From Eledone cirrhosa (taxonomy: Eukaryota): a stretch of 64,000 nucleotides of DNA. The position numbers and the translations under genes are program-made. Below are positions 8,956 to 60,429 of the stretch, piece after piece; positions within the stretch are counted from its first letter, which is position 1; each line of letters starts with the position of its first letter. Location of the stretch: positions 197,718,001 through 197,782,000 of the forward strand of contig OZ024743.1 of NCBI GenBank assembly GCA_964016885.1, read 5' to 3'. Below the pieces are notes generated by a model. It saw nothing but the letters and a program-made list of their open reading frames with translations. It made no database searches and was not told the DNA's origin.

Positions 8956-9233
8956 AACCAAATAAATATATATTTAAAAAAAAAAGACTCCAGTTGCATT
9001 TTCGATTTCATCTATTTTCCTTATATATATAGGTAAGTTATTCCGGGTTGAATCGGAGGTAACCACAGTAAGTAAGGTACTCAATACATAGCAGAGTATA
9101 AAAGTTTTAATATAGAAGAGATTCTGCAGGACTAGAACTGTTTCATTCGTGAGAAATGATAAGGAATCTGACTGTCCAAGTAAATATGGTGGTATTTATA
9201 TCTTTTCTGGTGGTAGGAGAGGGTGGGGAGTGG

Positions 9234-9597
9234 GATGGTTGGAGGTCATTGGTTGAAAGAAAAGGGAATTCATTAAAAGCTAATTCTTTAAAGCTATAAT
9301 TTATATTTAGAGGGACAAGGGCAGAAAGAATTCTATAAACAAGTTCAAATTGGAGTGCCACTCCTTATTTTTAAGTTTCTCTTAAGCTATCAATGCCTAT
9401 ATTTCAGGTGCCTATAAGATGGTTGGAGGTCAGTCATGGTTGATGGGTTTTAAGAAAGGGGAGTTCTTTAAAAGCTAATTCTTTAAAGCTTTACTTAGAG
9501 TGACAAAGGCCAAGAGAATTCTATAAACAAGTTCAAATTATAGGTGCCTCTCCTTATTGTCAAGTTTCTCTTAAGCTATATTTCAGGTGTCTACAAG
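9234..9597. repeat. Diverged ~180 bp tandem duplication
   Basis: GATGGTTGGAGGTCA...AAAAGCTAATTCTTTAAAGCT...GAATTCTATAAACAAGTTCAAATT...AAGTTTCTCTTAAGCTAT occurs twice. Confidence 0.85.
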
Positions 9598-9624
9598 CAC
9601 ATTTACACACACACACACAGATAA

Positions 9625-10015
<391 letters not shown>

Positions 10016-10521
10016 GCATTTATAGCAGCTGTGTTAGACCCCTGAAAAGTTTGCATTATATTTTTTCACTACCCACTTCTACAATTTCTTATTTATTATT
10101 TTCCATTCTCAACTTATTAACCTTTTCTGTAGCTTTGGCCGTACAAGCAACACCTACTAATTAGAGCAGCTATTTCTAGACTCTACTGTTTTTTTTTTTT
10201 TATTCATTTCTCACTATCTAATTTTTTATATTTCTTTCTATTGTTTTTTATTGTCTCCTACTCTTATTTGACTTACCTATTATAACCTCCCTCCTCCATT
10301 TTTTCCAGAACAATTGTTCGACTTTTCATACACTATCCTTAGAATCTGCTGTATAGATTTCACTTTCAACGCTTGACCGGCTCCACTCACTCCCTCATTG
10401 TTCTACAGGCAAGTTCAGCCACCCCTACCACCCTCCAAATGCCACGAATAGACTTATTTGTGTTTACAACACACTTTGACCAATCCTCTCAACAACTACA
10501 GTCTTCTATATAAGGAAGTAC

Positions 10522-10600
10522 CCCTTGACAAGTTCGGCTATTTATTTACCAGGCTAAAATTTTTAATTTAGTCCAGAAATAGCCGTCGAAACGGCTTGCG
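10522..10600 (+). ncRNA. Putative hammerhead ribozyme, family I (TTGACAA core, long stem II)
   Basis: TTGACAA-G-tt-CGGCTATTT..GGCTAAA..TTTAGTC..AAATAGCCG-t-C-GAAA-cggc-TT; stem I is weak in this copy. Confidence 0.55.
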
Positions 10601-10626
10601 CTCTGCCGTCGGGGTCATACTTTTTC

Positions 10627-10713
<87 letters not shown>

Positions 10714-14500: not shown

Positions 14501-14541
<41 letters not shown>

Positions 14542-15112
14542 AAATGTGCCGTCTACAGAACTAGAACTGTTTCATTCGTATGAAATCATCACCAATGTTA
14601 GATAAAGTTGGTCAAGTACGCTATATATAGATTTATTCGGAAAACTATTCTCTTTATACCTTCTCTACCCTCTCAACCATATATGGTGAACATCAAAACC
14701 TTCACCCATACCAATGGTCAAAGAATAATTGTTCCACATCACAGCACACAGATTGATAATGTGAAACACTTTCTCCCCATTCCTCTCCTCTCTACTATCA
14801 CACTAACTGACTGCATTTCATTCTATTTTTAACTTATTTACATTTTCTTAAACGAAAGTCCCATTGCTGAATTCTTACCGCGTAGCGAACAGTTGGTTTC
14901 ACTATTATGGGATTTCTGATGGATTGTGATACATAATTAAGTATTGCATATGATTGAACAATATATATTGCAGTCAGCATATGTAGGCAATTATAAAAGA
15001 CACAGAAACATATGTTAAATCAAATAAATTCCTATACTCCTTTACGCCGACGTTTATATTTTTCTTGGTGCAATACTTGCTTATATTGATATACTCTGTG
15101 ACCTCTTCTGGA

Positions 15113-16622: not shown

Positions 16623-17794
16623 GTTGTGTGGAGGACTGGGCATGCCATGGCTGATGATGCGCAAACATGCGCTGAGGCTGCGACATCTCTGGTGCTTCCT
16701 TGACGGTGAACAGGTGTGGTCGCCGTTCGCCAGTCACGTTTTCTCACAGCTCATCTCCTTGACGGAGCTGCAGTCCTGAGTCAGAAAAAGATAGCGCTTG
16801 GAAACTGGAATGTCTCCAGGCGCTCATTGCCCTCTGCCAGCTGGGCACCAGTATCGGTGGAACATCCACCTCGGCGTTCTATAGAGGATTAGTGGAGGGG
16901 AAGAGCGACGACGTTCTCGGAGAGATCCTGGGCGTCGAAGAAGATCAGCTGCTTGCTCTCTTCCGGAGAACTTTCAGCCCGGGGCCCATGGATAACTTCC
17001 AAAAATCCCTGGCCTGGCAGTGCTACCGGGGAGTGCTGCCGGTTCGAAATAAGTTCTACAGGCACGGAACTGCCGTCAGCCGAGCCTGTCCGAGATGCGC
17101 GCATAGCGACGAAACCGTTGTGCACGCACTCGTTCAGTACCCGAGCATTGCTGACTTGTGGAGCTATGTCGAACAGTTGCTGTCACGTGTGGGACTGATC
17201 CGGTTGTCGACTGAGTCCATTGTGCAGATGGTCTCGCCGTCTTCCTTTGAGGAGGAAGGGCAGGCGGTTTTCATCTGCCTGGTGGCCATGGCGAAAGAGA
17301 TTGTGTGGTGGACAAGGTTAAAAGGATTAAAGACAAACACTTTCCTCTTCGGCGAATCCCTGATTAACTTTTTCAAGTTTCACTTGAAGAGGAAAATCAC
17401 GGTGGAGAGGCAAGTGCTGCTTTCTAGCAAGTTTGTTGAAAGGTGGGTGAATGTAGCGAGAATGGTCCGAGTGAACGGGACCACTCTGAATATACGTCTG
17501 TAGTTTGAGAGATGGAAAAATTGAGAGAGGGCGTTTGCCCTGGTAGTCAGGGTGGCCGTGGTCTTTTGTGTGGTTTTCGCCACGAGTAACCCTCGGAGGT
17601 TTCCCCCCTGTTGGGGAATTTTTCATTGTTTCAATTTGAATTTTATTGTTTATATATATATATATGTTTTATGTCTTTTTTCTTTTCTTATATAAATAAT
17701 AAAAATATTTACACGCACAAAACCCACATCGTACCATCCTGTTCCGTCTGTGATGTTTTTCTTGATGTCAGCCCTTGTGGACAATAAAGAAATC
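16622..17794 (+). mobile_element. 5'-truncated Tx1-like LINE (ORF2 C-terminus + 3' UTR)
   Basis: Translation matches the ORF2 C-terminus, including CPRCAHSDETVVHAL (zf-RVT-like); in-frame stops; AATAAA then (ATT)n. Confidence 0.93.
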
Positions 17795-18036
17795 ATTATT
17801 ATTATTATTATTATTATTATTGAATGCTATGGTTGACGGAGGCTCGGCTCTGTAAGGTATTGTAAATTTTGACCGCTATAACAATTGTAAATTGTTTAAA
17901 ACTTTAACCAACTTGTAGACAAAAACACCCTCCTCCTCGTGAGAGGGGTCTTTCTGCCCGTTATTTGGTCCTTCGGGGTTAAATAACCGCTTATTGGGGT
18001 TTTGTGCCCAATATTTATTTTAAACAAAAAAACAAC

Positions 18037-18416
18037 ATGGCTACGAAAAAGAATTTTCATAGGTCACTCCCACTCATTCCGTCTTCTTCTTCCTCAATCG
18101 TCACTACAGCAGAGAGAAGATTGTCTCTATCCCTCCCTCCTCTAAATGTGTCTCTCTCCCTCCCTTCTCTTTCGCAAGCGACGCCAGAAAAGAAAAATCA
18201 CGCGCAAAGCGTGCAAGATTTCTCCACGACGACGACGACAACGACGAAAAAGGTGTGCGGGAAATACGAAAACCCATTTCATTCGTCTGACGTCAGGAAT
18301 AATAGCAGTAGCAGCCGTAATAACAGCAGCAACAGCAGCAACAGTGACAGGGAAAACAACAGTAGCAGCCGCAACAGCATCAGCAGCAGCATAAACAACA
18401 ACTGCATCAGCAGCAA

Positions 18417-18448
<32 letters not shown>

Positions 18449-19912
18449 ACAACAACCACAGCAACAGCGGCGGCGTCAGTAGTCATAGTACCTGCAGCAA
18501 CAACAAAAGTAACAGCAGCTCTGACGACAACAACAACAACAACAACAGCAGCAAAGAAAAACCCATCTCGTTTGCAGGTATCGCAAAGAACCTGGAAACC
18601 ATCCTCATAACAAATGAGGAATTAGAGGAAGCGAAGAAGATGGTGACGAAAACCGGACACCGAGCAATCTGCAAGGCAGCCGAAACATTTTTCGAAACCC
18701 AACAGCACTGTACGGTCACGTACCGTACAGTAAGCACAAAATCCCGTAGGGTTGAAAGAGCCACAGAGGCTCAAATACAAAAAGCCTTAGGGTCTGTGTG
18801 GCAGCGGAAAACGCACATCACCCGAGGCAAGAAATATGCCACCGTAGACGTGCTTTTTGCCACACCCCAGGAGGCAAAGACTCAATCCTTAGTGACCCCA
18901 AGGAGCTAGGAAATGGTGTTGGTGCCCTCCTACTGCGGGCAAAAAATTGTGAGGGTCAAACTGACCCCCCCCCCCCGGGTCTGTCCTCGTCGGAATCGAG
19001 GACAAAACAACTGTACTGCAAGTACAGAAAAAAGTAAGAGAAGATTGGGTTGGCACCTCCATTGAGATGTTAATCCAAACCAACCAGGAGTGCATCGAAG
19101 CTATCCCGGATGTGATAGACTTCGATAACGGCACTCAACTGCCCATAAGTGTTGAGGGAAAACGCCCGAAATGCTTTCGCTGTGGATCGAAGACTCACCT
19201 CAGGGCCTTCTGCAACGAGAAGACCCGGAGAAAGGAGAAAACCCCCCTCCTTCCGAATCCGGCTCCACGGCTACCAGCAACAGGACAAGCGGCAACCAGG
19301 AACGATAGGTCCGTGGCACCCATACCCACGCCACGGAAATCAAAAACAGAAGCAGCAGCAGTGGAAATATTAACAACAACAACAGCAATACCAAATGCAG
19401 CTGCAACAGAGACTCCAGTGCAAACATCACCAACAACAACAAGTGAAAGAGTGGAGCTGGTACCCCTCCCCGACCTCACAGAATCAGACATGGAGTGTGA
19501 GGTGGGAGAGGGATGGCAAAAGGTCGTAAGAAGGCACAAACGCAGAAGCAGCGCATCGTCGCCTTTGAAAAGGGAGGAAAGAAATGAGAAAAGGGTAAAG
19601 TCTACTGCAAAGAGACCCACAGCAGCAACACCACCAACACCATCACCACCCACACTAGCACCACCATCACCAACGGCGACAACCCCACCGCCAACAACAC
19701 CTTCAACACCACCACCACAAGCACCAACATCGCAAACACAACAACAAAACACACACACCCAGCAACAACGACAAGAAAATAGCAGAACCACACCCCACCC
19801 CAAGAAAAACAAATGCACGGCAATAAATACACACAACAAGAAACTAATGACTTACATAATTGAACACACAAGACATTTCACAACAGGACTCCATAATACC
19901 AGCACCAATTAA
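18037..19912 (+). pseudogene. LINE ORF1 (gag-like, CCHC zinc knuckle), frameshifted
   Basis: N/S-rich N-terminus, SFAGIA motif, CFRCGSKTHLRAFC (CX2CX4HX4C) at 19172-19213, P/T-rich C-terminus; frame broken near 18900-19050. Confidence 0.85.
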
Positions 19913-20190
19913 AACGCCAACTAACATAAGACTGCAAAAATAGCACAGAAACAATACACAAACATTAAAACGAAATTCCCCAACGCAGTTGGTGATTTCA
20001 GGGACCTAGGAGGAACCATCAATCGAAGAGTATATTCAGACATTCTCTTAGAAGAGCCGACGACCAGCCGAAGGGACGATTCAACGGTCCCTTCACCAGA
20101 CGATCAAGTGAAAAGGGATGTAAAAACCATCCCTCCTCTACCAAAAGTACGGTAAGTGGTCTTTCCCATCTTTTCCACTCTATTTTAAAC

Positions 20191-23100
20191 ATGACCTCAC
20201 TCAGAATAGGCAGCATAAATGCGCGTGGCTTGGGGTCGTCATGGAAGCAGGGTCACCTGCTCAACGACCTCAGGTCACTAAACATAGATGTAGTGGCCAT
20301 CAGCGAGACCAGAATCTCCGAAGCACGGGCCTTCGCACCGATCTTCGGCGGCTACGATGTGTACGCATCTCCCAGCCGTCCTGGATCGGGTGGAGGAGTT
20401 GCTGTGCTTTTTCGGAGAGGTTTGGATCTCGCCATACGGGCCATCTTCCTGGACCCAGAGGGTAAGCTGGTGGTGCTGGACGTGACCAGCGGAGACGGGC
20501 AAGTTTTCAGGCTAGTGGCCGTCTATGCCGCGACAGGAGCAGGGCGGCCTGATTTCTTAGATCTTAGATGCACGCTGGGACTGTGTGGGATTAGCGGATA
20601 GGGCTGGAGGGTGCAAGAGCCTCACCAACCTGTTCAGGCGTTTTGAACTGTCTGACAGGTACCGATTGGATTTCCCGAATGTGCCAATGTGGACTTGGAC
20701 AAATCGCATAGGGTCATCCAGATCATATCTAGATAGAGTATTTTGTAGGGAAATAGATAGGTCTAGCATAGGCTGTCCACAATTCAAGATAGTCAGCTAC
20801 ACGGACCACAAATTCGTGATCTGTGTGCTTGACTTAGATAGGCTTCATAGACGAGGACCCGGCTACTGGAAGCTAAACGCGTCCTTACCAGCGCGCAAGG
20901 CCTACAGAGACCGGATTAGCGAACTAGTTAAGCGGGCGTTGACGGGGGCCATCGTCAACAACAAGTGGTGGTTTGCTCTGAAAAGAGCGATTAGAATAGA
21001 ATGGATTAGGTTTAGTAAGGCTTTAGCAATAGAGAAAAATAGAGCAGAGGGAGAACTAGTTAGAAAATTAGACGAGGCGCTTAGCAAAGGCATTGCGACC
21101 GACGTGCTTGCGGCGAAATTGGCCCTTGACCAATTCTTCAATGCAAAGCACGAAGGCTGCGTTGTCAGAGCAAGGGTGCGTGCTCTCAGACACGAGGGGA
21201 CGAAATCCGTTCAATGGGCCTGAGTGGCGGAGGCGCGTCGTGGCAACAAAGCCACGATCCGGTCTTTGGTGGACCACGACGGGCGCATGCTACTCGATCC
21301 CGGGCAAATGTGTGAAGCTTTTCAGCGACACTTCGCTCAGCTGTTCGGGGGCAGCGGTGGTCCGGGTAGAGGGATGGACTTTAGTGTCTACCTCGACGGA
21401 CTGCCGCGGCTCTCGGCCACTGAGGCGAAGTGTTGCGAAAAGCCGATAACAGCCGCTGAAGTAAGGGAGGCAATGACTGGCTGCACAAGGGGTAAATCGC
21501 CTGGTTTGGATGGTCTGCCCTATGAACTTTACGTACAGATGCCAGACTTGTTCGGAGGCCTCTTGGTGGACGTCTACTGCAACTGGCAGCAGAACGGGAG
21601 AATTCCCAGTTCTGTGAGCCGAGGAGCGGTGGCACTGCTGAGAAAGGATCCGAACAAGGGGGATAACATAGACAATTTCCGGCCCATAACTCTGCTAAAC
21701 ACAGAGTTCAAGATTTTGGCCAAGGTGCTAGCAAAGAGGTTGGCGCTTGTCGTTGGTGGTCTGTTGGGAGAGGCGCAGACATGCGCCATTCCCGACAGAT
21801 CCATCCACGACAACCTCCACCTCATGCGATACATCATAGAGAGGGTAGCTAAGGAACCTGGCACGGGTGGGTCCTTGATCAATTTAGATCAGTCGAAAGC
21901 TTTCGATAGGGTCGACCATCGTTACCTAGCGGCAGTCCTGAGGGCGGCTGGCTTTGGGCCCGTCTTCAGAGGCTGGATCGCTGCCATGCACAGCGACATC
22001 TGCTCTGTGGTGAGAGTGAACGGTCACCTGTCGGAACCGTTCAACATCATGCGCTCGGTCCGCCAAGGATGTCCCCTCTCGTCCCTCTTGTACGTATTGA
22101 CTCTCGAGCCATTACTGCACAAACTGGAGACGTTGAGGGGAGTCCCGCGCGAACTAGGATGCGGAAGATCCGTGTCAGCATATGCGGACGATCTCACCGT
22201 AGTGGTGTCGAACGCCAAACACATCGAGGCGATCGGCACTACACTAAGTGAATACGAAGCGGTGACAGGAGCAATGATCAACCAGGAAAAGTCGGTGGGC
22301 CTGCAGCTCGGCACCTGGAGAGGCAGGTCCATGCCGTCCAACAGCGTCGTCGGGCGCTGGACGGACGGACCGGTTAAATTGCTAGGGGTCTGGTTCGGTC
22401 CGGACCTCCAGACGGACAAAAACTGGGACGAGGTGACGAGCAGGGTGGCTTCTCTCACCCAGAAATGGGCGGAGAGGAAGCTATCCCTGAAAGGTCGAGT
22501 GGAGGTGGCTAACGCGTACATCGCGTCTGTCATCTGCTACCGCCTAACCGTCGTACCTTGTCCTAAGCCTCGCCTGACTGCGCTGGAGCGTTTGCTCTTT
22601 CGCTTTTTGTTGAAGGGACGTGCTCCGATGGTCAGGCGGTCCATCTGTTGTCAACACCCGCTACGTGGAGGGCTGGGCATGCCGTGGCTGATGATGCGCA
22701 GGCACGCGCTCAGGCTACGACATCTCCACCTCTTCCTCGACGGTGATCAGGTGTGGTCGCCGTTTGCTAGACGCGTTTTTCCCCAGCTCGTTTCCTTGAC
22801 GGAGCTGCAGTCCTGGGTCAAGCGAAGACCGAGAGGGAGCGCCTGGAGACTGGAATGTCTTCAGGCGCTCACAGCCCTCGACCAATCGGGCAATGTGATC
22901 GGTGGAAACTCCACCTCGGCGTTCTATAGAGGATTAGTGGAGGGGAAGAGCGACGACGTACTTGGGGAAACTCTAGGCGTCGACGAAAATCAACTAGCCA
23001 ATCTCTTCGGAAGAACTTTCGGGCCAGGGCCTATGGACAACTTCCAGAAATCTCTGGCCTGGCAGTGCTACCGAGGAGCCTTGCCAGTTCGGGATAAACT

Positions 23101-23527
23101 CTACAGGCATGGAGGTGCCGTCAGCCGGGCATGTCCGAGATGCGCGCAGGGCGACGAAACCGTCCTGCACGCACTCGTCCAGTGTCCGAAAATTGCTGAC
23201 TTGTGGGTTTATGTCGAACACCTGCTGTCGCGTTTAGGACGGATCCGGCTATCATCTGAGTCCATCGTGAGGATTGCCCCGCCCTCCTCCTTTAGCCGGG
23301 AAGGGCAGGCAGTTTTTATCTGCCTGGTGGCCATGGTGAAAGAGATAGTATGGTGGACACGTTTGAAAGGGCTGAAGACGAGCACTTACCTCTTCGGTGA
23401 TGCTCTGATTGACTTTTTCAAATTTCATTTGAAAAGGAAAATCAGAGTAGAGAGGGAAGTGCTCTCTTCCCAGCATTTTGTTGAAAGATGGGTGAGAGAA
23501 GCAAGAATGGCCCGAGTGAATCTGTAA
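20191..23527 (+). pseudogene. LINE ORF2: APE endonuclease + reverse transcriptase + C-terminal zinc finger, disrupted
   Basis: SINARGL, ISET, YLDRVF, TDHK; KSPGLDGLP, FRPITLLN, DQSKAFDRVDH, QGCPLS, YADD; CPRC..ETVLHALVQC. A deletion at ~20557 removes the GDWN motif and there is a TGA at 21221. Confidence 0.95.
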
Positions 23528-24110
23528 ATTAAAGGTGGAAAACTGGGATAGGGCACTTGCCTTGGTGGTCAGGGTCATTTTGGCTTTTTACTGGGCTTTC
23601 TCCACAAATGTCCCTCCGAAGTCTCCCCCCTATTGGGGAATTTTTCATTGTTATTTTCATTGTTATTTTTGTTACATCCTCTGTTTTTGTTTTTTACACG
23701 CAGAAATGCCCATTTGTACCGTCCTGCATTGTCCTGCACTGTCCTTAATGTCTACTTTATGTAAACCCTTGTGGTTAATAAAGAAATCATTATTATTATT
23801 ATTATTAATATTATTATTATTATTATTATTATTATTGTGTCTTATCCAGATTAAGTTTCGAAACAGTTGAAGCGAAAATAATTTCAGACATGTTCTGAGA
23901 TATCAAGAAATAATGGTAAGGAATGGCACCTATTCTTGGAGAACTTTCTGTTATTGTTTGCTTATCAGCATCTTTGTCAGCCAGTAAACACAGCCCTATC
24001 GTTCCAATCTACATCAGTGACTTTACTAATATGTTTACTGCTAGTTACTAAAACAGGATGTGTCTAGCTCCATGAGAAACATATTGGCAAAGAATACGAA
24101 GACTTTGAAG

Positions 24111-34508: not shown

Positions 34509-34892
34509 TCGGTAGAGGGTCGGACGCCATGCTTTGACGCATAGAGTTACGGTGCTTGCCATTCTGAGTTCAAATCCCGCCGAGGTTAACTTTGCCTTTC
34601 ATCCTCACGGGGTCGATGAAATAAAGTACCAGTAATGCACTGGATAATTGCTGGCCTTGTGCCAACGGTAGAAACAATTATAGTAATGGTTGCTGATTTA
34701 GGCACAAGGCCAATAATGGGAGAGGAAAGTCAATTAAATCGACCCCAGTGCATTACTGGTGCTTTATTTTAATGCCCCCGTAAATATTAAAGGCAAAGCT
34801 AACCTTGGTGGAATTTGAACGAAAGGACCGTAACTCTATGCTGCAAAGCATGGTGTCCGACTCTCTACCGATACTGCCAATCCACCACCCTT
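34509..34892. mobile_element. Tail-to-tail inverted SINE pair
   Basis: Plus copy 34509-34682, minus copy 34688-34892 of the same family. Confidence 0.85.
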
Positions 34893-39194: not shown

Positions 39195-39544
39195 AAATAT
39201 GTAAAAGGTAAACAGAAATAACAATACAATCGGTACAGTATATGGAAGGAATATATTAGGTTAACGCTTGATATAGCAGGAAGAGGGTCTTAACGTTTCG
39301 GACGTTATCAGTACTTCATCAGATGAAAGAATGAGAAATAAAAGAAATTAAGGAGACGGGCGGGTTGGTATTGGAAAAATGTCTTTAGATAAAAATAACA
39401 GGTTCATTCATGTTGACATCTCTTGCAAAACTATTGGTGCTGGCGTTTTGTGTATGATTTACGTTTTAGAAAAGTGGATGATGGCAGGCGTCTACCTGAA
39501 ATGGAAAAAAAAACGTTTTGTAAAAAGAGCTACACTTGAGCACG

Positions 39545-40500: not shown

Positions 40501-40804
40501 ATATATATATATATATATATATATTTTTTTTGTATGTATATGTATATATATATATATATATATAGGAGAAAGTATGACCCCGACAGCAGAGCTCAAGCCG
40601 TTTTCGACGGCTATTTCAAGTTTTTCCTGGATAGGAAAAACTTGAACCGTTAAGATCTTCTTCCTGGTTATGGCAATATTTATAAAACAAACTTTGTATT
40701 TCATCTGATGAGAACGTACCAAAGTTTTGGTATCCTTGAAATATAAACACTAGAATAAATATGTTTTTATAAATATAGTTTCCATTTATTTAATATCATT
40801 GATA

Positions 40805-41040
40805 TATATATATAATTGTAAATAGAATAGCTTTCACCGTATATTTGACTAAAGAAATTTTTGCTGAGTATTGAGTATTGGCGTACATGTATGTCAATAC
40901 TCATCTTTTTCCATTTATCTGAGGGTTCTAAACCCCATTATCAGGCTAAAATTTCTTTAGTAAAAAATACGGTGAAAGCTATTCTATTTTCTAATTTCAA
41001 ACGTGCCCACTGTTTCAAAACATACTTACTTGTCATATAT
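40805..41040. mobile_element. (TA)n-flanked fold-back element
   Basis: AAATAGAATAGCTTTCACCGTAT..ACTAAAGAAATTT inverted at 40948-40990. Confidence 0.8.
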
Positions 41041-41056
41041 AATTGTATATATATAT

Positions 41057-41140
<84 letters not shown>

Positions 41141-41222
41141 CATATATACATATATATAGAGAGATATACAATTATATATATATATATATATATATAATTG
41201 TATATCTCTCTATATATATGTA

Positions 41223-41278
<56 letters not shown>

Positions 41279-41458
41279 TGTATGTATGTATGTATGTATG
41301 TATGTATGTATGTATGTATGTATGTATGTATGTATGTATGTATGTATCTATGTATGTATGTATGTAAATATGTAAAAGGTAAACAGAAATACCAATACAA
41401 TCGGTACAATATATGGAAGGAATATATTAGGTTAACGCTTGATATAGCAGGAAGAGGG

Positions 41459-41494
41459 TCTTAACGTTTCGCACGCTAGTGCTTCATCAGAAGA
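41459..41494 (-). ncRNA. Minimal hammerhead ribozyme, family A
   Basis: Minus strand TCTT-CTGATGA-a-GCAC-tagc-GTGC-GAAA-CG-TT-AAGA. Confidence 0.85.
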
Positions 41495-41810
41495 ACGAAT
41501 CGGAAATTAGAAAGATTGAAGGGACGGGCTCGGCGGGATCGGAAAAGATGTTTTTAGAGAAGAATAACAGGTCCATTCATGTTCCCATCTCGTTCGGATC
41601 TAGCTGTCGAAACGGCCGGAGCTCAGCCGTCGGGGTCCTGACTCTTTTACTATTACCCACTCTACTACCCATAGTATCGAGTACTTTTGTGTTTTATGGT
41701 CCACCTGGTTCCTTACTACACTTCTTTCGTTATGTATATATATTTATCTAAAGACATTTTTTCCAATTCCAACCCGCCCGTCCCCTCAATTTATGTTATT
41801 TCTCATTCTT

Positions 41811-41845
41811 TCTTCTGATGAAGGATTAGCGTCCGAAGCGTTAAG
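41811..41845 (+). ncRNA. Minimal hammerhead ribozyme, family A (A15.1 mutated)
   Basis: TCTT-CTGATGA-a-GGAT-tagc-GTCC-GAAG-CG-TT-AAGA. Confidence 0.7.
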
Positions 41846-44800
41846 ACCCTCTTCCTGCTATATCAAGCGTTAACCTAATATATCCCTTCCATATTGTTCC
41901 TATTGTGCTGTTATTTCTGTTTACCTTTGCATACATATATATATATATATGTGTGTGTGTGTATGTGTGTATGTATGTGTGTGTGTATGTGTGTCTGTGT
42001 GTCTGTGTGTTTGTGTGTCTGTATGTTTGTGTGTGTGTGTGTATACAGAGTGAGAGAGAGTGAGAGGAGGGAGAGAAAGAGGGGTGCGATCCACGCGTAA
42101 AATATTACATGTATTAAAGAAAATCATTGTAGAAACAGCAAGCGTTTCCAAAAGGAGGCAAATGAGTCCCAAAGACATAGAGTAGTATGTCTAAAAAAAT
42201 AATGTCTTAAAAATAGAAATAAAATAAGAAATACAAGCTAAAACGTCAACAATCGAATATACAGAGTTTTGTTATTTCCAGCGAGAGATGCCAACAAATA
42301 ATGCTAGCGACAGATCCTAGCAACATATGTCGTCCCTAAGGAACAGCCTGCTTTAGTACTAAATACACATTTTGTATTGATGTAGCTCCTAGTTCAGGAC
42401 TAGCTGTTATGACATTAGATGTATATACAATATTTCGACAAAGACTTGATTTATTTGTTTAACTAGTCGTACTCGTTGTAGTGTATGTATTGATGCAGTG
42501 TGTGTATGGTACAGAATAACCAAGTGCTGTTTCTACATCAAGTCCCATAAAGACGAAAACGGTAGCTTGTTATTTAATCTGATTTCCCTGGCTTTGTTAA
42601 ATGTGGGCGATATGTTTTGGGAATTTTAGATCCAAGAAATTTTCTCGGGGTCATTTGAAGGCTAATATTCAAACATAAAGGCGCTTTGTTGGCTGAAGTA
42701 GTAGAGAATCGGATAAAATGCCATGTTATAAGTTCTTCTGGTTCTTAACATTCTCCCAACTTTGCCTTCAATCCTTCCCAGGTCTATCCAATAAAGTACC
42801 AGTCATGTACTGGGGCTGCTTTAATCAGTTCTTTTATTTCCCCCAAAAATTTGTTGGCCCTGTTCCTAAATTAAAATTAATATTCCTAAGAGAACTTAGA
42901 GTACTAGATAAAACATACCGTTGATGTACGCTCTTCCAATAACCATCCATTAAAACATTACTTCAGATGTGTATTTATTTAAATTTAGTTAGTCAATGGA
43001 AACAAATTATGAGAGTATTTCTTCTGCTTCAACAGATAGAAGAAGAAAAAAGACAACATTTTATTTAACTTGTTAAAAGTGTTTCTTAATGATGATGGCA
43101 CCATCGATTAAATTACATCAGTAAAAATATGTCTATATTCTTTCCCTTTCAATAAAAGCACAAAGTTACAACTCGAAACATCACTAGGCGTCTGTTACTA
43201 AAGCCATGTATTTATGATCTGTACAGCAAAACGCCACGTATTTCCTTTAACGATTTATTAATAAAAAGAGTCAATGAAAACCTTCTTTCGTTCGAGCCCG
43301 TAAAAGTGGGGACTTCTGGTGCCCTTGGCCATAGGGCCACCTTCCTACTCACTACCATCGGCACAGAGTTGGCTACCCTCTGGTGTGAGTGGCCCGAGTT
43401 GGATAGTTTTTCCAGTGCGTCTCCCTCAAGATACTCCGGGGAAACGCCTTCGCCATTCTGTCCGCCGGGACAGCGGGACAGCCAGCGCATGGGGCTTTAT
43501 TTGCTTGCAATAGTGAGAGATATGGAGAGCAGGAGAGACGGAGGCAGTGACTGTGGGTGCTTGGTTCTCTTGTGTTCGGACCTTGTGTATATGTTTCACG
43601 GGCACACTCTCATGTATGTATTATATGAGTATTTCTTATTTTTAAAATACTTTTCTGTTTGTGTCTGTTAAGCTGGATTTTGCCTTTCATTTTTTGAAGT
43701 CGATAAAAAAGGCACCAGTTCAGTACTGGGGCTAACTCTCCTTTTATATCTCTTTCTCACGTCCCCTCTCTCATCATCTCTTCCATTTTCTGGACGAAAT
43801 CGTCTGTGTTCAGACAAGGAGATGAGTGGTTTATGACATGTTTAAATTGCGTGTACGTCACGACGGTATTCCTCTAGTTCCATCAGGATGTATTGGTCCA
43901 TACACACTGTTAGTGTGGTGGTTAGTGATAGTGAAACTATGTAACCGGACTATAACTAATCATGGGTGGTACACCTAACCCATCGCTTGGTTTTACGCCA
44001 CCATGTAATCACTTTGTTGCAAGTATTTGGACAAATCTGTTGTTTCAGGATAACCCACGAGCCATAGTTTCTTACTCTAAGTTCCCAATCAGTGTCTTTA
44101 GTTCTGTTGTAAGCATTTGGCTATTTAACGGTCAGGGAATAGTTTCCTTTTACCAGTCCTGGAGGTTCTGTAAATTGTAAAAGGCGCTAATCTTGGTCTT
44201 CTGACTGAGCGATAAAATTGTGACTAGTTCGCATTAGTTGTCTAAAAAATCTGAAAAACAAAACAAACAAAACAAAACCAAAACAAAGCAAAAGGTAATA
44301 ATATATGACATGCAAAATAATCTGAAAATTAGAGACAAATAAACAAGTCTAAATAATGGTTTTCTCTAAACAAGAGGATCAGGTTAAATGTAAGATATAA
44401 ATGTTTTATTTAGGAATATGATGGATTATAGGATATGGCATATATCACAGAATTTACAAAGATATTCAGCATAAGGCATATATTAAGTTTCTATGTGGTC
44501 GTTTGATCTGTTAGAAATAGCAACTAAATAACGTTCAAATCAAACATCAATGTCCTAAACAAGAACAATTACGTTGTATAAAGTTAAAGTTTCAAATGCT
44601 TTTAATCATGATTTTAATCGTAACTCAATAAAGATTGATCTAAGATTAAACAACATTAAACATGTAAATTGTGTTTAGCTATAGACACCCACCAATGTAA
44701 TTACACCACAATAAAACAGTGCAATACAGGAATGACATTGACCTCTGGCTCATTGTGAAATTTGTAGGGCAATATGGGTGGGTGATATGTTGGCGGTGGC

Positions 44801-50971: not shown

Positions 50972-51867
50972 TTATATATATATATAGAGAGAGATAAAAT
51001 TCCAACCGTGGTGCCAAGCGGTTTCGGCTTCAGATATTACATATCTCTATACCCACGCTCGCTGCATCACCCCATGCATTGAGTAATCCCATGATTAGTA
51101 CTCTCTTCAGTCTCACCACTGTGAACTCTCTCTCTCTCCCCCTCTTTCTCTCTCTCTCTCTCTGTGTCACTCAGTCTCTCTCTCTCTCTCTCTCTCTCTG
51201 TGAAAGTATGTGGCTAAGTGGTTAGAGAATTGGATTCTCAATCGTGAGGTTGTGAGTTCGATTCCTGGACCAGGCGATGCGTTATGTCCTTGAGCAAGAC
51301 ACTTTATTTCACGTAGCTCCTTCTACCTGGATTTGCAACCGATAGATAGTATTAGCAATTGGAAAGACCAACGGAAATATTGTTTCCTCGGTCCGATTTG
51401 ACGAAAGTCGATCTTTCCTTTATATATCCGTATGTGGCTGAGAAAAAGGGGTACTGAATGCCGAAGCAGAGGTTTTAATATTCATTTATATTAAGGCTAA
51501 AAAGTGTGTCTTTCCCCAATTTCTCTAATACCCTGTCCATTATCACACCCCTAGATTCCTATCACTTTTTCTTCGCTCATAGCTTCGTACTTACATGCAC
51601 ACACACTCTTTTACTTACATATACACACACACGCACACTCATGCTTTCGCTTGTGCTCAAGCATAGCTCTTTTTACAAAACGTTTTTTTTTCCATTTCAG
51701 GTAGACGCGTGCCATCATCCACTTTTCTAAAAAAACAAATCATACACAAAACGCGAGCATGTTTTGTAAGAGATGTCAACATGAATGGACCTATTATTTT
51801 TATCTAAAACCATTTTTTCCAATTCCATCCCGCCCGTCCCCTTAATCTTTTTTTATTTCTCATTCTT

Positions 51868-51903
51868 TCTTCTGATGAAGGACTTGCGTCCGAAACGTTA
51901 AGA
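51868..51903 (+). ncRNA. Minimal hammerhead ribozyme, family A
   Basis: TCTT-CTGATGA-a-GGAC-ttgc-GTCC-GAAA-CG-TT-AAGA within element 51650-51990. Confidence 0.88.
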
Positions 51904-51984
51904 CCCTCTTCCTGCTATATCAAGCGTTAACCTAATATATACCTTCCATATACTGTACCGATTGTGTTGTTATTTCTGTTTACC

Positions 51985-52103
<119 letters not shown>

Positions 52104-53822: not shown

Positions 53823-56800
53823 AAACAATGATGACAACAACACCAACAGCAGCAACAATAATGACAACAACACCAACAAGAACAACTTCACAAACAAGGA
53901 AAAAAAGGTTTCGTTTGCACAAACTGTCCAAAAGACAGAACTATATATACAGATTGACATCTCTAATGCCGGAGAATTGCTAAGAGATGCCAAGCAATAT
54001 ATAACTTTTGGAGAGAATGGCGCTTTTAGCATCACTTCTCCCCAAGAATTGCGTAGAGACACTGTCCTGAAAACCATAGTTTTAGGACAATCTCACCAGA
54101 AAACCAGCTCAATTAACTCAAAACGAAATTGAGCTGGTTCTAAGAAACTCCATGAAGGACATTACCTTCATAATGAAGGGAAAACTCTTCGGGAGTTTAT
54201 CAATAATATTGAAAGACCAATTGACCGCACAGAAATATTCTGTGTCGCCAATTGTGTCCACCATCTACACCTTTTTCCCCACATATATGGAAAAAGGACC
54301 CCAAAAATAAAAGTAACAAATATCACAGCAAATGTAAACATCTGGTGGATATTAGCTGGTTTCATCAATTTTGAAGAAGATACAGTAATTTCGGTAGGAA
54401 AGTCCTCCAGGGGCATATTCAACGGTACAAACTTAGAAGTTCTGGTCCAAATGAGATAGCTAGAATACCACAACGTGTGCCTCTAGATGGAAATTCCTAC
54501 ATAAACATTTCTGTTTAGGGTAGGCGGCCTTCATGTTACCAGTGTTTAAGCAGTGGCGACCTGAGGGCTTCCTGTCCTCAATTAACTGGATAAAAAAAGC
54601 ACTACTGCCGACACCCAACACAACAACACAACCACCACCACCACCACCACCACCACAAAAACAACAACAACAACAACAACAACAACACACAAACATAACA
54701 AAAACAAACCAAACTGCAAACACAGTCCCACCCAACCTCTCCCCACCTTTTCAGCACCCACATGGCCAATATAAGAGTTGGATGTGTGAATGTACGCGGC
54801 CTGGGGTTGCCCTGGAAACAGGGCAAACTCTTAAACGACCTCAGGTCGCATAGTATGGATGTAGTAGCCATTTGCGAGTCCAGGATCCACAGCGTGCGGC
54901 AGCTGCCACCCCCTCTTCGACGACTTTGAGATCTACGCATCTCTCTGTCAGCCGGGAGGTGTGGGGCAGGGTTGCCGTTTTGCTGCGGAAACACCTGGAC
55001 GTCGTAACACAGACGATACATCTGGACCCGGAGGGTCGACTGGTGGTCCTAGACGTTGACGGTAGTGAAGGTGGAGCCTTCAGGCTGCTGGCCGCATATG
55101 CCCCATCCGGGACACTGCGGCCAGACTTCTTCAAACGTCTAGAGACTTTTCTGGGAACGTCCCGCTCCTTGCTTTTAGTGGGAGACTGGAATGGAATCCT
55201 AGATGCACATTGGGACTATGTGGGAGCATGTCCCGATAAAAGGGGGTGTAACAGCCTCAAACAGTTAATCGGCCGATTTGACCTGGCCGATAGATATCGA
55301 CTAGATTTTCCGACTGTGCCACTGTGGACGTGGACTAATATCGGCAGAACATCTAGATCGTACCTAGATAGGGTTCTAGTAAGAAATAAAGATAGGGACA
55401 TGTTAAGCTGTCCACAAATGTTCATGGTTGCCTATCAGATCACAAACTAGTGACCTGCATGGTCAACCTTGATAGAACCCATAGACAAGGACACGGCTAC
55501 TGGAAGCTGAACTTTTCGTTACCGACATGCAAAGCCTACAGTAGACGGATTAGCACTTTAGTTAAACAGCACTTGACAGGGGCGATTGTCAACAATAGAT
55601 GGTGGTACTCTCTCAAGAGGGCAGTTAGATTAGACTCGTTAGATTTTAGTAAAGAATTAGGGTTAAATAGAAATAGGACCGAGAAGGAACTGATAGACAA
55701 AGTAGAAGAGGCAATTAGAAGTGGCAACGTAGCCAGCGTGCTAGCAACGAGAGCGGCCTTGGACCAGTACTTCGACGCAAAGCACGAGGGCTGCGTTGTC
55801 AGAAGCAAAATACGTACTCTGGGTAACGAGGGAGCCAAAGCTGTTAGCTGGGCCCGGGTGACGGAGGCAAAAAGTGGTAACAAGTCCACGATTCGGTCTT
55901 TGAAAGACCAAGCAGACGTGCGCGGCATTTCAGTGGCACTTTGTTCAGCTGTTCGGGCAGGGCGGCGTGCCGGGAGGGGGTATGGATTTCGGTCCATACA
56001 TCGACGGCTTACCCAGACTCTCGGACAGTGAGGCGAAGTTCTGCGAAAAGCCGATAGGTGACGCGCTGCGAAAAGAGATAGGGGACGCGCTGAGCCAATG
56101 CGGCAAACGCAAATCTCCAGTTTTCGACGGTCTACCCTACGAACTTTACGTAGCAATGCCGGACTTATTCTCCGGTCTCCTGGAAGCGGTCTACTGCAAC
56201 TGGCAGCAGAACGGGAGAATTCCCAGTCCTGTGACCAGGGGCGTAGTCACACTAGTCCGGAAGGACGAGAATAAGGGGGATGACATAGGCAACTTCCGGC
56301 CCATAACTCTGCTAAACACAGAGTTACAGATTTGGGCAAGGCGTTGGCAAAGAGGCTGGCGCTTGTCGTCGAAAACCTGGTGGGGAAGTGTAGACATGCG
56401 CAATCCCGACCAGGTCCATACACGACAACCTCCATGTCACGCGATACATCATAGAAAGGGTAGAGTGTAAACCCGGCTTTGGTGGGGCCCTGATCAAATT
56501 GGATCAGTCTAAGGCTTTCGATAGGGTTGACCATCGTTACCTGGATGCGTGCTCGAGGCGTCAGGCTTCGGACACATGTTCAAGGGCTGGATTGCTGCAA
56601 TGCACAACAGCAACATCTGCTCAAGGGTCAATGTGAACGGTTACCTCTCAGACCCGTTCCATATCACGCGATCCATTCGACAGGGATGCCCTCTCTCCAC
56701 CCTTCTGTACGTACTGATTCTCGAGCCACTATTGCGGAAGTTGGAGCTATTGCAGGGCGTCCCTCAGGAACCGGGACTGCGGAAAACCGCGTTGGCCTAC

Positions 56801-58408
56801 GGCGACGACGTGACAGAAATGGTGTCGAGCACCTCGCAAATCGATGAAGTTGGCTCCTTTCTGAAGGAATACGAACGGTTCACAGGAGCGAAGCAGGGAC
56901 AAGTCCAGCAGTCTGCAACTTGGATTGTGGAGAGGCAAACCGATGCCTTCCGATGGCGTCGTCGGACGCTGGACGGAAGGACCGGTAAAGCTGCTCGGGG
57001 TCTGATTTGATCCGGACCTCCAGGTGGAGAAGAACTGGAACGAGGTGACGGTCAAGGTGTTTGCACTCATCTAGAAGTGGGCCGAGTGCAAACTATCTTT
57101 GAAAGGTCGAGCGGAGGTGTCAAACACTTTTATAGCGTCCGTCATCTACTACCGCTTGACCGTCGTGCCTTGTCTAGCCAAAATGCTCGGCAAAATCGAG
57201 CGCGCTTCTTCCAATTCCTTTGAAAGAAGCGGGCTCCTTTGGTGAGAAAATTCATCTGCTGCCAACACCCTTCAAACGGAGGGCTGGAGAAGCCGTTGCT
57301 GACGATGCGCAAACACGCGCTCAAGCTGCCGCACCTTCACGTATTCCTCACCGGACAACCGGTGTGGGCCCCGTTCGTGAGGCGAGCATTCCCACGACTC
57401 GTCTCGCTGACCGAGCTGCTGTCCTGGGTCAAGCAAAGACCGAGGAAAATGGGCGACTGGCACATCGAATGTGCTCAGGCGCTCACAGCCCTTTGGCAGG
57501 CGGACCCGGCGATCAGTGGAGACTCAACTTCGTCATTCTATAGAGGGTTGGTCCGCAGCAAGTGCGACGACGCGCTCGGAGAAACTCTGGGCGTAGATGA
57601 AGACGAACTGGCCAGTCTGTTCGGTAGAACCTTCCACCCGGGACCGTTGGACAACTTCCAAACGTCCCTGGCCTAGTAGTGCTACCGAGGAGCTCTACCA
57701 GTTCGAGACAAGCTCTACAGACACGGGCGCCCGGGCAGGGACCCTTCGAAAAGATCTGTCCGAGATGCATGCGCGACGAAGAAACCGTCGCGAACGCATT
57801 CATACACTGCCCGGGCGTTACCGACCTGTGGGGCTATGTAGAACGACTATTGTCGCGGGTGGGGCCAATCCAGTTGACCACCGAGTCCATTGTCATAATC
57901 AAACCACCACCCTTCTTCAAAAACGAAGGAGAGGCGGTTTTCCTTTGTGTGATAGCTATGGCGAAAGAAGTTGTATGGTGGACCAGGTTAAAAGGGGTAA
58001 GACCAGACACCTTTCTCTCCGGCCAACAACTGATACTTTTTTTCAAATACCACTTTGGAAGAAGAATCAGGATAAAGAACGAGGTGCTGTACTCCAGCAA
58101 GTTTTATGAAAGGTGGGTGAAAGTGGCGAGAATGGCCCGAGTGAATGGGCCTTCTCTCTATATCAGCCTGTAGGTTGAGGAAAAGGAGGAAGAGAGGAAA
58201 GGGGTACAAACTCATCGTACTCCTGTAGATGAGTTGCACATTTTTTCGGGTGTATGTATTACCCATATCATATGTCTCCCCCTATTGAGGAAAATCGATT
58301 AACTTTTAAATTACATTTGTGATAATATTTTACACGTTTTTATTGTATGTAAACTTCCCCCTTTGTATTTGTCCCCTTCCTTTGTGCCCCTGTGGCTAAT
58401 AAAGAAAC
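53823..58408 (+). mobile_element. Decayed Tx1-like LINE, second subfamily
   Basis: ORF1 remnant (N-rich, SFAQTV), ORF2 remnant, 3' end CCCTGTGGCTAATAAAGAAAC followed by (ATCT)n. Confidence 0.92.
54762..58173 (+). pseudogene. LINE ORF2 remnant (APE + RT + zinc finger), many frameshifts and stops
   Basis: MANIRVGCVNVRGL, VGDWNGILD, YLDRVL, FRPITLLN, QGCPLS, YGDD, CPRCMRDEETVANAFIHC. Confidence 0.92.
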
Positions 58409-59263: not shown

Positions 59264-59332
59264 ATATATATATATATATACTGAAATACTAGTATGCATA
59301 TAAATACACACACGTATACATATGTACATGTA

Positions 59333-59618
59333 CCGAGTTTTTCACTGGACACTTTACTGTGAGTGTCCAGCTAGTCTGTATGTAACCAAACAGTATGTAA
59401 CCAAGCTCATTGAAACAGTCTGAAGTACCTATATATGTCACTGTTGTAATTAATTATACTAATTAATTATCGAAACTAGTCCAATATTCCTGTCTGGCTC
59501 TCTGGAGAATAGAGGAAAGGTGTTTCCTTGAAAACCCGTATGACTCTAAAACCCGGTTTGTCTGTTTGGTTACATACAGACTAGCTGGACACTCACAGTA
59601 AAGTGTCCAGTGAAAAAC

Positions 59619-59619
<1 letters not shown>
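59333..59619. mobile_element. (TA)n-flanked fold-back/composite element
   Basis: AGTTTTTCACTGGACACTTTACTGTGAGTGTCCAGCTAGTCTGTATGTAACCAAACAG inverted at 59562-59619; internal 59405-59460 is shared with 60734-60788. Confidence 0.85.

Positions 59620-60429
<810 letters not shown>

Follow-up and report, generated by a model that had tools for sequence, protein, structure and literature searches.

Cross-family joints of non-autonomous Penelope-like insertions in (TA)n tracts are probably secondary rearrangements

Within the window, by which we mean the whole 64,000-nucleotide stretch of DNA analysed here, insertions of different short repeat families meet directly in a few places. These cross-family joints are most probably secondary rearrangements of adjacent non-autonomous Penelope-like insertions in (TA)n, and not single events in which two RNAs were copied. 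The same-family fold-backs that surround them likely arose by priming at both ends of a (TA)n break; copying of different RNAs by the two ends is not supported.

The window is dense in microsatellites and short repeats and belongs to an animal assembly of 3.0 Gb. It was compared with an even-step sample of 159 pieces of 10 kb, taken over 22 large contigs (1.59 Mb in total), and with about 0.36 Mb of additional loci chosen for particular families. Before counting, six loci were removed for overlap with the window or with another locus. TA-anchored ends, together with fold-backs, supplied the family references, which were then tiled across all the DNA; being derived from the sample, this library misses rare partner families. 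The letters I, B, A and J are those of the first-pass annotation, while the labels K, F17, F20 and F41 were assigned in this analysis.

The 3' ends of the insertions concentrate at (TA)n, making AT-rich or microsatellite DNA the target. Many families have two fixed 3' ends there, a short one and one 40-150 nt beyond it; the stretch between the two is the 'tail' known from Penelope-like elements (PLEs), and arms are called tailed or tail-less accordingly. An inverted, 5'-truncated copy joined head-to-head is present for I, J and B. Among adjacent opposite-strand pairs of the same family, from the 18 references with a CTGAnGA..GAAA core in the window and sample, 70 are head-to-head and none tail-to-tail without intervening TA, with two head-to-head and five tail-to-tail across TA, a tally that is partly circular in that references were first oriented by their TA-anchored ends. 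The polarity described earlier, with the 5' ends of the arms joined and the 3' ends pointing outwards, holds. A family-blind search gave 273 inverted repeats; both ends lie near a microsatellite in 156, and 116 of these 156 carry an extension on exactly one side. Typing of same-family two-armed inserts agrees, with one tailed and one tail-less arm in 178 of 188, both tailed in 8 and both tail-less in 2; for families I and B together, both arms are tail-less in 0 of 87 typed same-family pairs. Tail-less ends also occur on single-armed copies. The fold-back centres are heterogeneous and contain short palindromes. Insertions are crowded and not always intact: in the window, 3' ends that face each other are separated by no more than 200 nt in 17 of 26 pairs, and several of the 20 B loci fetched have partly lost one arm. 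A looser class of arm remnants, which takes in intact fold-backs overlooked by the tiling, was kept out of the counts.

The first joint, between families I and B, has the following surroundings:

40501..40564: (TA)n target tract, to the left of the first chimera
40565..40617, minus strand: family I arm, its 3' end short (tail-less), matching the reference of its family at 93%
40615..40633, minus strand: inverted family B arm remnant of 19 nt, overlapping the I arm by 3 nt (TTC)
40634..40801, plus strand: family B arm with a tail-less 3' end and a hammerhead-like core at 40705-40741
40820..41045: ordinary same-family fold-back nearby, left arm tail-less, right arm tailed

It had been described as an I arm on the minus strand (40560-40617) next to a B arm on the plus strand (40620-40800). 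The joint is real and contains no TA, but it does not pass from minus to plus, as an inverted piece of B of 19 nt intervenes. Because this piece (40615-40633) is the reverse complement of the 5' end of B, and the same centre recurs in a complete B fold-back elsewhere (L220; tailed left arm, tail-less right arm), the minus-strand I arm joins the stump of a minus-strand B arm. In other copies, the tailed end of B lies about 94 nt beyond the tail-less end. Both outer arms of the chimera are tail-less, breaking the tail rule; the pair of tailed and tail-less arms that would be the signature of a single event is absent, and a duplication is not readable in (TA)n. Among cross-family joints whose two ends could be typed, neither arm carries a tail in two of five (Fisher p = 0.003 against the same-family rule, with small n).

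At 40565-40801 two fold-backs would at first have stood next to each other, one of family I with its tail-less arm on the left and its tailed arm on the right, the other of family B with the tailed arm on the left and the tail-less arm on the right. A deletion of about 0.4 kb via the 3-nt overlap would then have taken out both inner, tailed arms except for 19 nt belonging to the inverted B arm; we infer that such an inner-arm deletion between neighbouring fold-backs yields exactly the product seen. Palindromes are unstable in genomes. A control pattern of this deletion type, I (minus) running into J (minus), is found at one locus genome-wide, where a tail-less I arm meets a J fold-back, giving a structure like that of the first joint. 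The I/B joint itself was spanned by no second locus among the 40 best genome candidates, only by the window. From 4 of 9 listed runs, the reads on 40565-41035 mapped as short repeat-derived pieces only, and no allele without the deletion was seen among them.

The second joint, between families A and I, is simpler in appearance:

41372..41591, minus strand: family A arm, 5'-truncated, of a single-armed family, with a hammerhead-like core at 41467-41490
41591..41730, plus strand: family I arm with a tailed 3' end, starting from the usual fold-back centre and sharing at most 1-2 nt with A
41739..41928, plus strand: another copy of family A, following a short TA tract and sharing only 84% identity with the copy at 41372..41591

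The earlier placing of A (minus, 41365-41590) against I (plus, 41590-41735) is confirmed, the joint lying at 41591 with no TA between the arms. Two different sequences are thus directly joined in opposite orientation, the end type of A not being typable. Among the 40 best genome candidates a second spanning locus is again absent, and the window alone spans the joint. The 43 copies of family A have one 3' end only and are two-armed in 0 of 43; their 5' ends abut a microsatellite in 18 cases and other DNA in 15, and reach beyond the reference in 10. The A copy at 41739..41928 is likely an independent insertion. An I copy inserted into an A/A fold-back was considered and rejected, since the A copies are only 84% alike and A is never two-armed. 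Less firmly than for the first joint, the single-armed A and the I copy at 41372-41730 may be successive insertions, between which the TA, the short I arm or both would later have been lost. Sequential insertion with local loss is sufficient to produce the joint, the origin of which is ambiguous. I arms joined without TA to a SINE or to unannotated DNA make up 4 of 72 sampled cases; arms cover 69% of the 39.1-42.0 kb stretch, against 7% of the even-step sample, and therefore an I joint of this kind will often hit another arm there.

Three further structures in the window concern families J and I:

9037..9600, minus strand: long-form copy of family J, made up of a tailed end and the family's own body rather than a fusion
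10013..10630, plus strand: long form of family I, its own body plus a tail-less end
14524..15110: tail-less J arm (minus, 14524-14591), 56-nt linker and 5'-truncated copy of another repeat (plus, 14648-15110), a unique joint

Family J had been reported as fused to unrelated sequence at about 9170 and about 14592. At the former position the supposed partner is J's own upstream body, 40 of the 40 top matches spanning 9130-9420 at 94-100%. In the same way, what lies upstream of I at 10570 belongs to I's own body. At 14592, J is indeed joined to non-J DNA, first the linker, for which no significant match was found in the fetched DNA, and then the truncated repeat. Short I copies start at a fixed point within the loop of the long form's degenerate hammerhead-like stem (10500-10632 in the window, and at I fold-back centres), and short J copies a few bases before a CTGATGA core.

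On the genome scale, pairing is almost exclusively within families. All 125 outward-facing two-armed cassettes of the even-step sample are same-family; the targeted loci hold 74 same-family and 2 different ones (L261 and L264), and the window 16 and 2, one further call with a 140-nt gap having been discarded as spurious. Genome-wide searches with exact patterns returned 15,747 I/I, 5,342 J/J (with a different gap range) and 3 I/J joints. The 3 I/J joints stand against 21,089 same-family ones and against 18,343 expected with an independent draw, an expectation that presumes I and J were active together; cross-pairing is below 0.02% of it. One of the three I/J matches has TA between the arms and one contains only a short I fragment; the third (L289) is clean, with one tailed and one tail-less arm and TA outside both. 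Direct cross-family joints in all the DNA are head-to-head in 3 of 10 cases, tail-to-tail in 3 and tandem in 4, with no head-to-head excess. A tailed and a tail-less arm meet in the cross-family joints at L261, L289 and L288, the last with TA between; such pairing matches a single event, though deletion would also give it half the time. With 2-3 cross-family joints in its 64 kb, where the 1.59 Mb sample has 0, the window exceeds what its 2.3-fold arm density alone would explain, but it was picked for them. The first-pass annotation had both ends of a break in (TA)n primed independently, on the same or different RNAs, with cross-family arms keeping the head-to-head geometry. Priming at both ends fits the same-family fold-backs, which are head-to-head with a tailed and a tail-less arm, some of them differing in 5' length between the arms; independent priming on different RNAs is not supported by the tally of orientations and family pairs, cross-family joints being very rare and not biased head-to-head.

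The two arms of a fold-back resemble each other more than they resemble arms elsewhere. The arm-to-arm distance is 0.089 against 0.170 across loci for I (n = 44), 0.076 against 0.154 for J (n = 18), and 0.048 against 0.089 (n = 9) and 0.015 against 0.125 (n = 8) for B. Family K behaves alike; F17 (n = 5) has no such excess likeness. A variable 4-mer of J, read by eye, agrees between the arms in 43 of the 48 readable among 50 listed loci, where about 8 would be expected from the variant frequencies, and in the remaining 5 it differs by one base; a small comparison found exact concordance in 5 of 8 for J and concordance in 10 of 11 for I. Later gene conversion could be a partial source of this likeness. 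We propose that a Penelope-type enzyme would cut (TA)n and extend both ends, starting from two fixed sites on a single template or on two RNAs from the same source. The cDNA ends would be joined at short palindromes, and later deletions and further insertions would fuse neighbours into chimeras. The single 3' end of family A and its absent fold-backs suggest an association between having two start sites and having two arms. Window copies of this family, which has a hammerhead-like core, lie at 41372-41591, 39203-39543, 41739-41928 and 51653-51988.

The common variants of the arms and the short palindromes at the centres would also be expected if a cDNA folded back at its end and was copied, or if a hairpin was re-inserted, with the chimeras still secondary; self-priming has been proposed for PLE head-to-head repeats in the accessible text of PMC3846280. 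Some long fold-backs, however, have very unequal arms: at L262 and L273 the tail-less arm has body sequence missing from the tailed one, and at L277 the reverse is seen. Inequality in both directions therefore favours two primings over snap-back, unless later asymmetric deletion has mimicked it. The heterogeneous centres, the tail-less ends on single-armed copies and the extension of both strands by the Poseidon enzyme PAc in vitro (PMC11167929, in its accessible part) also speak against snap-back, and we regard it as unlikely. For the chimeras, a rare true priming by two RNAs would mean that one template is usual but that RNAs of different families occasionally occupy the two ends, the A/I joint being such a case. 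That joint has no remnant and an overlap of at most 1-2 nt, and its I arm starts at the 5' point usual for the family, which is what a completed cDNA would do. The clean I/J joint at L289 would fit as well, as would L264, where another family is joined at or near the 5' start of a long I, and joins of this type are reported for L1 (PMC11702581 and PMC13174262, as far as their accessible text goes). Against it, the I/B joint would need an extra template switch and, like L264, is tail-less on both arms; at most 3 I/J joints face 21,089 same-family ones; cross-family joints have no head-to-head excess; and family A is never two-armed. Occasional two-RNA priming is consequently judged quite improbable. 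A fuller version, in which a probable enzyme dimer loads one RNA with one start site per end, and about once per several thousand events two unrelated RNAs (A/I, L289 and L261), implying a shared enzyme, appears rather unlikely.

An origin of the chimeras by copying of composite master elements, or from misjoins in the assembly, is very improbable. Composite-looking joints can be genuine element bodies, as the long forms of I and J illustrate, and a joint-spanning read set was not seen among the mapped reads. On the other hand, neither joint is spanned by a second locus among 40 scored candidates each, on which ground a composite master element was rejected, and the arms differ from their references by 7-13%, making collapse of near-identical repeats unlikely. 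Secondary rearrangement of neighbouring insertions thus stays the preferred reading of the cross-family joints. As these are rare, lack a head-to-head bias and in the I/B case retain a fold-back remnant, the chimeras are no evidence for one shared enzyme, which had been read from them; an enzyme common to the families is nonetheless plausible as a hypothesis. GIY-YIG loci number at least 150 in the genome; the domain is C-terminal in 3 of 3 ORFs checked, and one locus has a weak reverse transcriptase match upstream. In the 20 loci examined, no link to I, B, A or J emerged. Some GIY-YIG matches are followed, about 1 kb downstream and equally oriented, by families F41 and F20 (L248, L250, L253, L255 and L257; L254 and L258), which are likely the pLTRs of autonomous elements.

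An inverted copy with a one-sided tail is an already known PLE layout. In the accessible text of PMC8557442 and PMC3846280, insertion units of EN+ PLEs comprise an inverted 5'-truncated copy and a tail on one side; the former states the origin of the inverted structures to be unresolved. The fold-backs here share with them the head-to-head 5' inverted copy, the one-arm tail, the short central palindrome and the (TA)n bias, which is reported there for Naiads and suggested for Neptune. They differ in that the stubs are non-coding, the tails measure 40-150 nt against 30-40 in the PLEs described, and the 20 GIY-YIG loci yielded no autonomous partner for I, B, A or J. The available text on PAc (PMC11167929) describes cleavage and extension of both strands and a tail bounded by two reverse-transcription start sites, matching the two fixed 3' ends per family seen here; it found no start-site difference between strands, while here 178 of 188 typed pairs use one site each. 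Twin priming of L1, for which the two L1 papers in their accessible parts describe inverted joins of two different RNAs, is the mechanism that the first-pass annotation had moved to PLEs. The L1 cases described there are backed by target-site duplications or de novo capture, whereas the (TA)n tracts here allow no duplication to be read and the joints between families look like secondary products. A literature search returned no title on cross-family PLE chimeras, most subscription papers being beyond its reach.

The counts constrain the mechanism: both arms probably come from one template, each end using a start site of its own in about 95% of cases. They also urge caution, as deletions between fold-backs in dense (TA)n clusters make convincing false chimeras, which the tail rule can distinguish. 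The locus itself is no demonstration of pairing in trans between different RNAs.

Hammerhead ribozymes had been assigned to the arms. At the level of motifs, CTGAnGA..GAAA cores are present in A and B, of which only A has a short type I pairing, and a degenerate core lies upstream of I. Focused Rfam scans of 40630-40800 and 41375-41735 found no hammerhead, and in the whole window only microsatellite and hairpin look-alikes were among the 150 of 215 matches listed. Metazoan non-LTR retrozymes are, in the accessible text of PMC7229834 and bioRxiv 10.64898/2026.07.22.740005, short and non-coding, with a type I hammerhead, and likely mobilised by PLEs. Families I, B, A and J are similarly short and non-coding with hammerhead-like cores, but are single or head-to-head rather than tandem, and their cores are minimal or degenerate. 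Retrozyme-like, head-to-head tandem arrays with a unit of about 460 nt occur at L051, L088, L128 and L155 and are related to 59272-59693 in the window. A hammerhead-core unit of 310 nt has about 40 TA-anchored ends in the sample, in two reference clusters, the count being of ends and not of loci.

A GAGT(G/A)CT-like motif is found in the tails of many otherwise unrelated families, about 40-85 nt before the long end, and is a candidate for a common protein-binding signal. The insert at L273:1289-1824 has a tailed arm consisting of the pLTR alone and a tail-less arm with 320 nt of body in addition. Two opposite-strand copies of a SINE-like repeat, about 65 nt apart, form an imperfect inverted repeat at 34509-34892 in the window. 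Decayed LINE-type copies occupy 16628-23670 and 54789-58179, with an ORF at 21224-23527 containing RVT_1 and zf-RVT domains.
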